Below, piece after piece: positions 52,742-57,389 of a stretch of 64,000 bases of DNA (positions are counted from its first letter, which is position 1; every line of letters begins with the position of its first letter). This DNA is from a virus: positions 32,001 through 96,000 of the IMG/VR virus record IMGVR_UViG_3300011335_000900. One strand, written 5' to 3'. The notes beneath the pieces are model-generated. The model made no database searches. It was not told where the DNA came from and was given only the letters and a program-made list of their open reading frames with translations. Made by a program: the position numbers and the translations under genes.

Positions 52742-52986
52742 AAAAAGTAGTTTGTATCAATGATAGGAAGTTACCTGAGGGTGCTGAAGTTGTAAATGGA
52801 AAAGAATATGAAGTTTTAGAAGAATTTTTAAACAATTATGATCAACGAGTGTTTATTATAGCTGGAATAAAAAATAAAGGAACAACTAAAATGGGACTAC
52901 GTTGGATAGGATATGATGCATCTCGTTTTGCAAACCTAGAATCAATAGCTATAGAATCATACGAACACGTATATGCAGAAAATTAA
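52732..52986 (+). CDS. Hypothetical protein
   Basis: VVCIND..GKEYEV..YDASRF SH3-like pattern. Confidence 0.5.
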   Translation: MEMKKVVCINDRKLPEGAEVVNGKEYEVLEEFLNNYDQRVFIIAGIKNKGTTKMGLRWIGYDASRFANLESIAIESYEHVYAEN

Positions 52987-53395
52987 TATAAAAAGAGGAG
53001 TTATAGCAGGAAACTTTGATGTACTCCATCCAGGATACATTGCAATGTTTGAGGAGTGTAAAAAACACTGTGATAGATTAATAATATGTTTACATGAAGA
53101 TCCCTCTATTGAACGACCAGAAAAACTTAAACCAATTTTACATTGGTCCGATCGAGTAAAAATTCTTTCTTCACTTAGACAAGTTGATTATGTATTTCCA
53201 TATCAAACAGAGGAAGATCTATATGAAGCTTTAATTAAAGGAAACTTTGATGTTCGATTTTTAGGTGATGATTATATAGGAAAACCATTTACTGGAGATG
53301 ATTTAGATATTCCTATACAGTATTTAAATAGAGATCATGGATGGTCAACAACAATGTACAAACAATTAATAGCAGATAGTTTAAACAAAAAATAA
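52973..53395 (+). CDS. Cytidylyltransferase (TagD/RfaE-like)
   Basis: AGNFDVLHPGY, KPI, GDDY, RDHGWSTT. Confidence 0.85.
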   Translation: MQKINIKRGVIAGNFDVLHPGYIAMFEECKKHCDRLIICLHEDPSIERPEKLKPILHWSDRVKILSSLRQVDYVFPYQTEEDLYEALIKGNFDVRFLGDDYIGKPFTGDDLDIPIQYLNRDHGWSTTMYKQLIADSLNKK

Positions 53396-53398
53396 ATT

Positions 53399-53782
53399 AT
53401 GAAAGCAAGTGAATTAAGGATTGGTAATTTAGTAGATTTAGGTAATAGAATTGCTAAAGTTATTGAAATTAACCATTTAGCGTGTGTAGTAGTTAATTTA
53501 GAAGAAACTCAGGATACTATAGAAGATTACGAACGTGTAAAGCCTATTAAATTAACAGAAGAATGGTTGTTGAAGTTTGGGTTAAAACCAAATCAATGGT
53601 TTTGTTCAAACAGCTATTGTGTTGTTGAAGATAAAACAGGCGATATTCATTATGGATGGTGTATGAAAACACAAAATTCTTTACATACAAAAGAGATTGA
53701 GTTTGGATATTTTAAATACGTTCACCAATTTCAAAACTTATACTTTGCAATAATAGGAGAAGAACTTATATTAAAAGAGTAA
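53399..53782 (+). CDS. Hypothetical phage protein (ELRIGN...LTEEWLLKFG...VHQFQNLYF family)
   Basis: Motif pattern familiar from Bacteroidota phages and prophages. Confidence 0.6.
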   Translation: MKASELRIGNLVDLGNRIAKVIEINHLACVVVNLEETQDTIEDYERVKPIKLTEEWLLKFGLKPNQWFCSNSYCVVEDKTGDIHYGWCMKTQNSLHTKEIEFGYFKYVHQFQNLYFAIIGEELILKE

Positions 53783-53847
53783 TATAAATGTTTTATTGTT
53801 TCCCACATTTTTTATTGTCTTCCACATATGTATAATAAACGGGAAAT

Positions 53848-54453
53848 ATGAAAAAAAGTGGAATTTATAAAATTATAAACCCAAAAGGTGAAGTTTATAT
53901 AGGATGTTCACAAAATATCCATGTTAGATGGATGAATTACAAGAATAGTAGTAAAACTGAAAAACAACCAAAATTAAATCAATCTTTTGAAACCTATGGT
54001 TTTGAAAATCATGTATTTGAAGTGATAGAAGATATTGAAATTTTGCTAGCTCAACGAGAAAAATATTGGATTGAATTCTATAATTCATATGGTAAAGGCT
54101 TAAATTCAAATCTTGGAGGAGGCGGAGTAGAAGCTCATAATGAAAATACTCGAAAACTTATTAGTGAAAAGGGAAAATTAAATGTAGGGAAAAGAAAAAA
54201 TTCACATTGGAAAGGTAAAAATAGAAGTGAAGAATCTAAACTTAAAATGAGCCAATCTAAAAAAGGAAAATCCATCCCATCTAACAACAAACCTATCCTC
54301 CAATTCAGTAAACAAGGTCAATTCCTTCAAGAATATTCTAGCATTGAAGAAGCTGCTAGAAATATTAGTGGAAATCCTACAGCAATAAACAACGCTCTAA
54401 AAAAAGGAGAAAATGCTACATCTTCTGGTTATATTTGGAGATATAAAATTTAG
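53848..54453 (+). CDS. Free-standing GIY-YIG homing endonuclease (NUMOD3 and C-terminal HTH)
   Basis: SGIYKI..VYIG, REKYWI, GLN, SEESKLKMS, EYSSIEEAAR..GYIWRY. Confidence 0.9.
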   Translation: MKKSGIYKIINPKGEVYIGCSQNIHVRWMNYKNSSKTEKQPKLNQSFETYGFENHVFEVIEDIEILLAQREKYWIEFYNSYGKGLNSNLGGGGVEAHNENTRKLISEKGKLNVGKRKNSHWKGKNRSEESKLKMSQSKKGKSIPSNNKPILQFSKQGQFLQEYSSIEEAARNISGNPTAINNALKKGENATSSGYIWRYKI

Positions 54454-54480
54454 TTATTATATTTAATAAAATTTAAAGTT

Positions 54481-55275
54481 ATGAAAAAAATAAAAATTAG
54501 CCACGAGGTGCCATTTTGTCTATTAACAAAAAGTCGAGAATTCAATGATTTTGATTATTGCTTGCCCCATTTAATGGATGAAAACGAAGAATATCGTGTA
54601 TTTTTTCAAAATTCAAAAAATATAGCACGCTATATTGTAATGGACAATTCACTCCATGAACTTGGAGAAGCATATAGTACAGACCGTTTAATGTATTGGG
54701 TAAATAAACTTGAACCAAATGAATTCATTGTACCTGATGTTTGGGAAGACTATACTGCTTCAGTTAGAAATGCAAAACAATGGGCAAACATCCAACTCCC
54801 AGAAAATACAACTAAAGTAGCTGTTGTGCAAGCAAAAAGTTTACACGAAGCTAATTTATGTGTTCAAGCATATAAAGATTTAGGATACAAGAAAATTGCA
54901 TTTTCATATGGTGCTTCATATTATAATGATATTTGCCCACATCCAAATCAAGATTTAGGTAAAGCTATTGGAAGATTTATGGTAATTTCTACTATGTTTA
55001 GAGATAAAACAATTACTAATACAGATCGAATCCATTTACTTGGAACTGCTTCCCCTATTGAATTTGGAATGTATAAAAATATGCCATTTATTGAATCTAT
55101 TGATACCTCAAATCCAATTATGGCAGCAATTGGTGAAATGCCATATACAAAAATGGGATTACATTTAAAACCAATGGCCAATATGAACAAACACCAAGAT
55201 ATAAGCAAAGAGTTTGTTAACGAGGATCTTGTAGATTTCAATGTTGAAATGTTTCGCACAATAAATGGACTTTAA
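54481..55275 (+). CDS. dpdA: TGT-fold 7-deazaguanine DNA modification protein (DpdA-like)
   Basis: MDNS, VPDV, VAVVQ, HLLG, SIDTS TGT-type motifs; next to queC/D/E and folE. Confidence 0.7.
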   Translation: MKKIKISHEVPFCLLTKSREFNDFDYCLPHLMDENEEYRVFFQNSKNIARYIVMDNSLHELGEAYSTDRLMYWVNKLEPNEFIVPDVWEDYTASVRNAKQWANIQLPENTTKVAVVQAKSLHEANLCVQAYKDLGYKKIAFSYGASYYNDICPHPNQDLGKAIGRFMVISTMFRDKTITNTDRIHLLGTASPIEFGMYKNMPFIESIDTSNPIMAAIGEMPYTKMGLHLKPMANMNKHQDISKEFVNEDLVDFNVEMFRTINGL

Positions 55276-55817: not shown

Positions 55818-56480
55818 ATGCCTTCAAAAGAATATATGAAAGAATATAGGAGAAGAAAAAATCCTAAAATTCTAGAAAAAGAAGAACTTGCTCAACAAGA
55901 AAAAAGACGTTGTACAAAATGTTCTGTTATTAAATCATTTGAGTCATTTGTCCCCCAAAAAGCAGGATATATGGGAATAAAATCTCAATGTAAAGAATGC
56001 GATACAGAATACGATAAACAGTTCCAATCTAAAACCAATGCTAGAGCTAAGCGGGATAAAACAGACAAAGCTAAGCAATATAGAAAAAAATATGTAGCTG
56101 AAAATTTAGATTGGTGGAGAAAGTATGAAAGAGAATACAGATACAACCGTAGAAAAGAAGACATGTTTTTTAAAATAAAGGGAAACATGTCTGGAAGGTT
56201 ATCTGACTTGATTAACAAAAGAAATTTAGGTACTACTACTCTTGAACTTATAGGATGTGATCGAGAAACTTTTCTATCCCATATTGAAAAACAATTCACC
56301 GAAGGAATGACATGGGAAAACTATGGTTTAAAAGGATGGCATGTAGATCATATTCTCCCATTATCTTCATTTGACTTAACTGTAGAGGATGAAGTAAAAA
56401 AAGCTTGCCACTATACAAACCTTCAACCACTTTGGTGGCAAGATAACTTGGAAAAGGGTAATAAAGTTAGTATATTATAA
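55818..56480 (+). CDS. Free-standing HNH homing endonuclease
   Basis: CxxC..CxxC finger; GMTWENYG..WHVDHILP...HYTNLQPLW..DNLEKGN. Confidence 0.9.
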   Translation: MPSKEYMKEYRRRKNPKILEKEELAQQEKRRCTKCSVIKSFESFVPQKAGYMGIKSQCKECDTEYDKQFQSKTNARAKRDKTDKAKQYRKKYVAENLDWWRKYEREYRYNRRKEDMFFKIKGNMSGRLSDLINKRNLGTTTLELIGCDRETFLSHIEKQFTEGMTWENYGLKGWHVDHILPLSSFDLTVEDEVKKACHYTNLQPLWWQDNLEKGNKVSIL

Positions 56481-56540: not shown

Positions 56541-57389
56541 ATGAACAAACAAAAAGATCATGTAGTTTTATCCCTAAGTGGAGGTCTAGATTCAAGCACC
56601 CTTTTACTTAGATGCTTAAAAGAATATAAAAGCGTTACTGCAATCTCATTTGACTATGGACAAAAACATCGAATAGAGTTAGATAGAGCACAGTCATTAG
56701 TAGATTATATTAATTTAACTTACTCTCCAATCCGTTATCGTCAAATTCAATTAAATGGATTAGCTGACCTACTAAACTCAGCTTTAGTAACAGGTGGAGA
56801 AGAAGTACCTGAAGGACACTATGCTGAAGAAAACATGAAAGCAACAGTTGTTCCAAACAGAAATAAAATATTTGCTTCAATTATCCAAGCAGTAGCACTT
56901 TCAATCGCAGATGAAACAGATGAGCAATGTGATATTGCAATGGGAATCCATGCAGGCGATCACGCAATTTATCCAGATTGTAGACAAGAATTTAGAGATG
57001 CAGATGATACAGCCTTTAGAATTGGAAATTGGGGATCTGAAAAAGTAGGTTACTTTACACCATATCTTGAAGGAGATAAATTTACTATTTTACAAGATGG
57101 TGAAATGTTATGTGATGAACTTGGCTTAAACTTTAACGAAGTATACAAACGCACAAATACTTCATATAAGCCTATATATCACGAACTAGCTTACGAGGAA
57201 GGTATGGATATAGTTGATGCTTCAGGATGGTTTTCTGATTACAAATCAGCAAGTTCCGTGGAGCGTGTAGAGGCTTTTATTAAATTGGGAAGAAAAGATC
57301 CTGTAGGATATGCTGATGAAACAGGTCCTGTAAATTGGGAACACGTAGTAAATGAAGTAACAAAAGTGTTAGAAACACATAATAATTAA
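56541..57389 (+). CDS. queC: 7-cyano-7-deazaguanine synthase (Zn-site variant)
   Basis: SLSGGLDS, FDYGQKH, VPNRN, YPDCR. Confidence 0.9.
   Translation: MNKQKDHVVLSLSGGLDSSTLLLRCLKEYKSVTAISFDYGQKHRIELDRAQSLVDYINLTYSPIRYRQIQLNGLADLLNSALVTGGEEVPEGHYAEENMKATVVPNRNKIFASIIQAVALSIADETDEQCDIAMGIHAGDHAIYPDCRQEFRDADDTAFRIGNWGSEKVGYFTPYLEGDKFTILQDGEMLCDELGLNFNEVYKRTNTSYKPIYHELAYEEGMDIVDASGWFSDYKSASSVERVEAFIKLGRKDPVGYADETGPVNWEHVVNEVTKVLETHNN

Follow-up and report, generated by a model that had tools for sequence, protein, structure and literature searches.

We analyzed a 64,000-nt window (bases 32001-96000) of a 129,105-nt virus record of IMG/VR (IMGVR_UViG_3300011335_000900), with the focus on a short tandem repeat in front of a free-standing endonuclease gene. 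The genes of this region all lie on the + strand, as do the features described below unless stated otherwise. A gene for a GIY-YIG endonuclease of 201 aa (53848..54453) is followed by a gene of 264 aa (54481..55275) that homology assigns to the DpdA3-type DNA guanine transglycosylase-like proteins. The latter, called dpdA below, is the presumed target of the nuclease. Directly 5' of the nuclease gene, two operator-like repeats of 18 nt each can be read (repeat 1, 53791..53808; repeat 2, 53810..53827), which are alike at 16 of 18 bases and have a period of 19 nt from start to start. Repeat 2 runs directly into a promoter-like motif, ATGTATAATAAA (53828..53839), a presumed rather than mapped promoter, and the nuclease open reading frame (ORF) starts at 53848. 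An initial annotation, made from the letters of this stretch, had described the tandem direct repeat, the promoter next to it and a resemblance to the Y-C-L-P-H codons of dpdA (tat tgc ttg ccc cat, 54556-54570), and had taken the repeats to be a selected operator. The repeat itself was confirmed, and the dpdA codons were found to agree with repeat 2 at 11 of 15 positions, the four differences being all synonymous.

The nuclease is a GIY-YIG enzyme of the homing type, as previously annotated, and was recognized as such by Pfam, PHROG, an I-TevI profile match, and Foldseek. It comprises a GIY-YIG catalytic domain, a NUMOD3 linker, and a conserved C-terminal domain. It matched PF01541 (GIY-YIG) with 29.5 bits (cut-off 22.6) and the NUMOD3 family PF07460 with 23.2 bits (cut-off 20.4), and its best PHROG was phrog_314, 'homing endonuclease' (E 3.6e-27). 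A profile made from eight orthologs matched the catalytic domain of I-TevI (1MK0/1LN0, E about 1e-8). The Tyr, Tyr, Arg, Glu, and Asn residues conserved in I-TevI-type enzymes are all present in the GIY-YIG domain; R27, E71, and N86 align with the Arg, Glu, and Asn of I-TevI and are invariant in the ortholog alignment. The structure was predicted with a shallow AlphaFold model (mean predicted local distance difference test score, pLDDT, 61.7). A Foldseek search with this model placed 1LN0, the I-TevI catalytic domain, at the top (probability 1.00; template modeling score 0.62-0.66 on the target). Residues 150-199 were modeled as strand-strand-helix-helix-strand with a pLDDT of 73-89. The C-terminal 85 residues are nearly invariant across the orthologs, while the catalytic domain has diverged. 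In the most distant IMG/VR orthologs (L035, 3001-3669; L036, 873-1541), the S-H-W-K-G-K motif of the linker is doubled by an insertion of 25 aa, an extra NUMOD3-like unit; these loci keep the repeats and their 19-nt spacing unchanged.

The protein encoded by dpdA is 36% identical to the 'DNA guanine transglycosylase' of Flavobacterium phage vB_FspM_immuto (E 4e-43) and 34-36% identical to proteins of Campylobacter CP220-type phages (E about 1e-33; both by tblastn). Pfam returned only a sub-threshold match to DUF6610. A QueC gene (56541-57389; PF06508, E 8.9e-36) is found 1.3 kb 3' of dpdA. Homology and this co-location with a 7-deazaguanine synthesis gene place the protein in the DpdA3 subfamily, with a predicted enzyme activity. 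According to the section of PMC10516641 on this subfamily (phiST, vB_FspM_immuto, CP220), all G is converted to a 7-deazaguanine derivative in the phages tested. The present phage shares a DpdA3-type gene with Cellulophaga phage phiST, vB_FspM_immuto, and CP220 (34-36% identity) but is known from its genes alone, whereas DNA modification has been shown in the tested members of that group.

The repeat motif occurs at no other place in the window or in the complete virus record. With up to three mismatches allowed, two matches were counted, compared with a mean of 1.30 in shuffled sequences, 40 out of 100 of which also reached two. This count is uninformative, because the pattern was derived from the two copies themselves, and the reality of the repeat was therefore judged by comparison with relatives. 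An exact-pattern scan of IMG/VR for the repeat core returned at least 117 stretches; the 80 that were listed were single matches with no tandem pair, and they were not used.

The promoter-like motif belongs to a recurring family, AT(T/G)TATAATAAA. This sequence, or a one-base variant of it, was found on the + strand at 10 sites (7362, 8521, 9014, 10828, 12588, 14691, 16961, 25420, 35804, and 53828), each at most about 35 nt 5' of a start codon. This recurrence in front of many start codons suggests that it probably represents a promoter class of this phage and agrees with the promoter that had been annotated beside the repeats. The motif often has TAAT before it and recalls -10-only late promoters. 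None of the nine other sites in the window is preceded by the repeat.

To compare the locus with its relatives, which are designated below by locus numbers, we collected orthologs of the nuclease. Searches with the nuclease protein gave nine IMG/VR loci (L029-L037, 58-90% amino acid identity); further orthologs came from metagenomes (L189-L191, 56-90%) and, through a search with dpdA, from L285 (63%). In all 14 loci, the window included, the nuclease gene is directly 5' of dpdA and the repeat directly 5' of the nuclease gene. Two good copies of the repeat are present in 12 of them, the first copy being degenerate in L190 and the second in L191. The sequence to the left of repeat 1 differs from one group of loci to another: a homologue of a 127-aa ORF in the window, L029-L032, L189 and, further off, L034; a terminator hairpin in L033 and L285; and unrelated sequence in L035-L037. 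Homology between these differing contexts begins at repeat 1 or at most about 10 nt 5' of it. The linkage was also assessed in a sample drawn by dpdA similarity alone, which consisted of the best 80 of at least 593 relatives, 79 of them usable. When a position weight matrix (PWM) of the repeat was applied to the region 5' of dpdA, the best scores were 27.3-29.2 bits in six of six nuclease-containing loci, and none of the 73 nuclease-free loci scored above 15.4 bits. More distant GIY-YIG paralogues (33-36% identity) were observed 0.3-3 kb 5' of dpdA in loci without repeats (L012/L013, 460-1116; L339, 729-1205). We consider these to be different elements, because the repeats are absent and L339 keeps the Y-D-Y-C residues discussed below.

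Further evidence that the repeats are a selected element was obtained by comparing rates of divergence. The 57 nt from repeat 1 to the ATG were 81-93% identical between the window and eight orthologs; in the same comparison, the nuclease ORF was 75-88% identical and the third positions of identical-residue codons were 71-82% identical. Repeat 2 is the most conserved copy, and it is identical to that of the window in 8 of 11 other loci (L029-L032, L035-L037, and L189). Because of the strict linkage to the nuclease and of an identity above that of third positions, the repeat element is, as judged from these alignments, cassette-specific, slower-evolving than silent sites, and under purifying selection.

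The nuclease gene is present or absent at one and the same site among close relatives and is patchily distributed on the dpdA tree, as is the case for homing genes; its presence requires nine changes on a tree of 82 rows. In L001 and L003, the dpdA of which is 98-99% identical to that of the window, a cytidylyltransferase gene is followed directly by dpdA. Compared with these two loci, the window has 1082 extra bases, which hold the 127-aa ORF together with the repeats and the nuclease gene. An 8-nt microhomology, TTATGAAA, bounds this segment, with a left copy at 53397..53404 and a right copy at 54479..54486 that spans the dpdA start codon. L002 and L004-L014 are shorter still, with an 84-aa ORF and then dpdA directly. 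One contig of metagenome X12 joins 53396 to 54479, with 53 letters on its shorter side and eight letters that fit both sides, and other contigs of X12 cover 54038-54470, inside the nuclease gene, without any difference. The same joint was found in metagenome X9, with a shorter side of only 22 letters, and contigs of X12 and X15 contained joints from 52987 to 54480/54481. Such contigs attest the existence of these forms, not their proportions.

The two genes to the left are variable too (52973-53782). They are a cytidylyltransferase-like gene (52973..53395, 140 aa; PF01467, E 6.8e-12) and the 127-aa ORF (53399..53782; phrog_10066, function unassigned), which lies in the segment absent from L001 and L003 and adjoins the cassette on the left in only some of the loci. 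The stretch 5' of dpdA is a hot spot for the gain and loss of genes. The end of the 127-aa ORF (3') was considered as a possible co-conversion tract, since it is 79-85% identical to sequences of Cellulophaga phages phi19:3 and phi19:1. It was rejected because no nuclease gene follows in these phages, and the likeness was ascribed to a conserved protein end.

The site in dpdA that resembles the repeats covers nt 72-89 of the gene (54553..54570; codons D-Y-C-L-P-H) and scored 12.8 bits with the repeat PWM. It is the presumed binding part of a homing site. The resemblance noted in the initial annotation not only holds but is stronger with alleles from nuclease-free loci: repeat 1 and the two following bases agree with the L001 allele at 16 of 20 positions, and repeat 2 agrees with the L015 allele at 15 of 18, 12 of them contiguous. 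The single good repeat copy of L191 keeps the Leu-Pro-His codons as they are found in dpdA alleles. Among the about 128,000 positions of the window (both strands), the dpdA site ranked fifth, and third apart from the repeats. It was the top PWM match in 6 of 28 nuclease-free loci, the second in 11, and lower in 11, the last group having mostly another residue at the Cys position. We regard this match as suggestive, not decisive. A second match in dpdA (54878-54895, - strand) was rejected as the target because its state does not track the nuclease. Its score was 9.9 bits in the window and up to 16.8 bits in L004, L006, L007, and L010.

The dpdA alleles that accompany the nuclease differ from the others at this site. 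Most nuclease-free alleles read Y-D-Y-C-L-P-H, and Y-D-Y-C is kept in none of the 14 nuclease-carrying loci. The corresponding residues are F-D-Y-C in the window, F-D-Y-L in L029-L032 and L189, G-D-Y-C in L033 and L190, Y-Q-Y-A in L034, Y-Q-Y-I in L035-L037, Y-D-Y-A in L191, and Y-D-Y-M in L285. In the dpdA-drawn sample, Y-D-Y-C was found in 0 of 6 nuclease loci versus 57 of 73 nuclease-free loci (Fisher p 2.7e-4), and the Cys alone in 1 of 6 versus 62 of 73 (p 0.001). Every site variant except those with Phe is also seen in loci without the nuclease. Resistant alleles that outlasted the nuclease would account for this, and plain ancestry would do so equally well. Kinship was taken into account with trees built from the part of dpdA downstream of the site, first with 37 and then with 82 rows. 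The 82-row tree provided nine independent pairs. On average, the motif changed as expected in 6.4 of them, and it changed in the opposite sense in none (sign test, median p 0.0156; range 0.0156-0.125 over random pairings).

In the window, the dpdA gene differs from all three of its closest nuclease-free relatives at 12 positions. Five of these fall within 27 nt (nt 44-70; 54525..54551), directly 5' of the site, where 0.4 would be expected at an even rate; four are synonymous and the fifth changes Tyr to Phe. This cluster of private substitutions is a candidate cleavage or immunity region. The private bases also match those of the nuclease-carrying locus L029 (5 of 5 in the cluster), but this was set aside because the match elsewhere is 16 of 30 and adds little. 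Clustering alone was used.

In two loci, sequences from the start of dpdA are found fused to repeat 1. L190 contains 18 codons of a dpdA start, the ATG included (M-K-V-S-H-E-V-P-I-P-F-L-E-K-S-R-A-F), which continue in frame through repeat 1. The repeat reads Y-Y-stop-P-H there and is three substitutions away from a dpdA allele. This stub is about 78% identical to the complete dpdA located 3' of the nuclease gene and is 12 nt short of colinearity with it, and its leader resembles that of the nuclease-free loci L026 and L027. Its junction corresponds to about nt 62 of the window dpdA, a position within the clustered private substitutions. L191 has, after a terminator, a stretch of 19 nt with ATG at its end, which is fused directly to the repeat and agrees at 18 of 19 positions with the dpdA leader of the nuclease-free L015. 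From their sequences, L190 and L191 look like invasion products, formed by homology-independent joining of repeat 1 to the left end of the break in the dpdA of a recipient.

These stubs bear on the argument by which an operator had been preferred to an insertion scar, namely that no dpdA codons are present upstream of the repeats. That statement is correct for the window, where the sequence 5' of repeat 1 is the 3' end of ORF 53399-53782 and contains no dpdA codons, but it does not hold in L190 (18 codons) or in L191 (leader and ATG). Because dpdA codons or leader precede repeat 1 in these loci, operator or scar is a false choice, and the repeat element may have started as a copy of the target that was later retained. 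The view of the repeats as a selected operator keeps the support of linkage, conservation, likeness to dpdA, and the promoter motif, but loses the operator-versus-scar argument, which fails to generalize.

We propose that the repeats are an I-TevI-like autorepressor operator, present in duplicate, in a free-standing homing endonuclease cassette. We put the probability of this reading at about 0.5; binding, repression, and the position of cleavage are what we infer from sequence comparison. The cassette, inserted directly 5' of a DpdA3-type gene, would combine a pair of 18-nt sites in tandem with a phage-type promoter and the ORF of the nuclease. The tandem sites would be copies or mimics of the dpdA 5'-end sequence that is recognized by the C-terminal part of the nuclease, the last 85 residues of which would recognize the 16-18 nt common to dpdA and the repeats. 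On dpdA, binding would take place at nt 72-89 and cleavage some 10-30 nt 5' of there, where the private substitutions and the L190 junction are also found. At the repeats, the bound nuclease would occlude the adjacent promoter and repress its own gene, as shown for I-TevI. We propose such a block because the repeats directly abut the cassette promoter, and we propose that the repeats remain uncut because the flanking cleavage context of dpdA is missing. Carriers of the nuclease would be protected by changes that affect either the site itself (replacement of the Cys codon) or the bases immediately 5' (Tyr to Phe or Gly, together with silent changes).

This arrangement has a precedent in phage T4. 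Excerpts of a review (PMC2988022) indicate that the operator of I-TevI is identical to its homing site at 15 of 20 positions and overlaps its late promoter. Both enzymes have a GIY-YIG domain with matching Arg, Glu, and Asn and a NUMOD3-type linker, and both have a homing-site-like sequence at their own phage-type promoter (15/20 for I-TevI; 16/20 here, where the homing site and the promoter are presumed), the likeness being confined in both to the presumed binding part and not extending to the presumed cleavage part. The two systems differ in that I-TevI is encoded in a group I intron and targets td, whereas the nuclease studied here is free-standing and would target a DpdA3 gene. I-TevI has one operator site and a zinc finger, compared with two tandem sites and a single Cys here, and, unlike the I-TevI operator, the present sites are located at the left end of the mobile segment or at most about 10 nt from it. 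Autorepression has been shown for I-TevI, whereas binding, repression, and cleavage are predictions in the present case. According to the same excerpts, I-TevII and I-TevIII also have homing-site-like sequences that overlap middle or late promoters and were proposed to be operators by sequence comparison (PMC2988022). The level of evidence for these is the same as here, but they are single sites, and the enzymes are intron-encoded and belong to other nuclease families or architectures. The Seg endonucleases of T4-like phages (SegA-G) are closer in their setting. As described in these excerpts, they are encoded by free-standing GIY-YIG genes between phage genes, as in the present case. In genomes without such a gene, they cut a gene next to its place, and they spread through recombination in which the flanks are co-converted (PMC2988022). 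In the literature searched, which excluded most subscription journals, we found neither a free-standing GIY-YIG enzyme described with a target-like operator nor a homing endonuclease tied to dpdA.

Several observations weigh against the proposed operator. The promoter is presumed from the recurring motif alone. A sigma-70 scan gave no site ending at 53836 or at the cassette promoter motif, and the combined sigma-70 and terminator scan found fewer promoter-like sites than in shuffled sequences. The score of the dpdA site is about 13 of a possible 30 bits, which is reached by chance about once per 10-60 kb; the chance of such a match is about 0.002 for the first 100 nt of dpdA and about 0.03 for 500 nt on either side and either strand. 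In Foldseek, the C-terminal domain matched the DNA-binding domain of I-TevI (1I3J) weakly (rank 13, E 0.71, probability 0.51), and the rows for this part of the protein were all weak, including I-HmuI (1U3E, E 2.9e-3). The zinc finger of I-TevI is the distance determinant in its linker and stops the enzyme from cutting its operator. The 201-aa protein, with a single Cys (residue 20), lacks such a zinc finger. With respect to the alleles, the 37-row tree, with five independent pairs, gave a p of 0.125, which is not significant; the 82-row tree is a quick one, dpdA recombines, and the p range extends up to 0.125. The Y-D-Y-C class was moreover defined after the data had been seen. Finally, the window, L033, and L190 keep a good copy of the dpdA site despite the presence of the nuclease, and immunity has therefore to be ascribed there to flanking changes, which is an added assumption.

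We also weighed other explanations, which, like the duplicated autorepressor operator, are not mutually exclusive. The best placed of them, though improbable, is that the repeats are bound by a different regulator, from the phage or the host, or act as an upstream element of the cassette promoter, and that their likeness to dpdA is coincidental. The score of the dpdA site is indeed within the range of the best random matches per 10 kb, and the match at 54878-54895 (- strand), equal or higher and unlinked to the nuclease, indicates that chance matches do occur. However, the repeat motif is confined to one place in a 129-kb record and so is no general regulator site of this phage, it is missing from the nine other copies of the promoter motif, and this explanation leaves unaccounted for both the changes of the dpdA site in 14 nuclease loci and the stubs at repeat 1.

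Also improbable, and ranked by us just behind, is the possibility that the repeats are a scar, in which the 5' end of dpdA was duplicated by illegitimate recombination when the cassette entered and has been carried along since, with no regulatory role. The 18 in-frame dpdA codons of L190, which run into a repeat 1 only three substitutions from a dpdA allele, and the dpdA leader and ATG of L191, fused to a repeat copy that keeps the L-P-H codons, count in its favour. On the other hand, the stubs differ between the two loci and are absent from the other 12, while the repeats are kept in all. Among cassettes with only 56-63% protein identity, the repeat region is better conserved than synonymous sites; its distance from the promoter motif does not vary, and two copies have been maintained. 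The L190 stub, in addition, falls 12 nt short of dpdA colinearity.

More doubtful still is the idea that the repeats, beyond acting as an operator, form the functional left terminus of the mobile element. While bound at repeat 1, the nuclease would now and then cleave the donor DNA immediately outside it, much as I-TevI weakly cleaves its operator. In another version, annealing would take place between the target-like sequence and the broken end of the recipient's dpdA. In both versions, the cassette could enter genomes without homology on the left and would leave dpdA stubs at repeat 1, as in L190 and L191. If true, this would be a homing endonuclease gene with a transposon-like terminal site.

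Least likely is a role at the RNA level, in which the end of repeat 1 and the spacer would pair with nuclease codons 2-5 and hide the start codon in read-through transcripts, while transcripts from the gene's own promoter would lack that arm and hence be translated, as described for the hairpin of I-TevI (this regulatory hairpin is mentioned in the excerpts of PMC2988022). The first nine codons of the nuclease gene (53848-53874) are nucleotide-identical in eight of eight aligned loci, some with a protein identity of 58%. A helix of 10 bp with a single mismatch was predicted and is retained when seven loci are folded to a consensus, and an A-U to G-U change in L029 preserves its pair. Against this, the fold of 53775-53865 was no better than that of shuffled sequences (z -0.70; 43 of 200 shuffles as good), none of 20 pairs had a compensatory change, L190 breaks one pair, a U-run that pairs with an A-run is barely informative, and repeat 2 and the dpdA data are left unexplained.

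Autorepression through a target-like operator has been demonstrated for the intron-encoded I-TevI and proposed for two more enzymes. The present locus suggests that, in an uncultivated phage from fresh water, a homing endonuclease that is free-standing follows the same logic, with a duplicated operator. It also offers a natural experiment, with 14 cassettes, at least six left-flank contexts, dozens of empty sites, and apparently resistant target alleles, and the dpdA stubs at repeat 1 would be rare sequence-level footprints of invasion without flanking homology. As the target gene is predicted to install 7-deazaguanine in phage DNA, a single-codon arms race would touch a gene central to escape from restriction, and dpdA as the target would imply that the nuclease works on, or before the formation of, heavily modified DNA.

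Two other endonuclease genes were noticed. An ORF of 220 aa (55818-56480, +), located between an 85-aa ORF and the QueC gene, had as its best PHROG 'endonuclease VII' (phrog_1035, E 1.1e-22). It is present in only 1 of 28 dpdA loci (L012, 92% identical) and probably represents another homing endonuclease gene of the free-standing kind within this gene cluster. Outside the window, the same virus record contains a paralogous GIY-YIG gene of 213 aa (G000:C1:96788-97420; L203, 1498-2139), with 49% identity in its N-terminal part. This gene lies directly 3' of a DNA polymerase gene and has the same promoter motif. An element upstream of it is conserved in its orthologs (L205-L209), and a loosely similar stretch is found at the 3' end of the polymerase gene. 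It may be a second case of the same arrangement.

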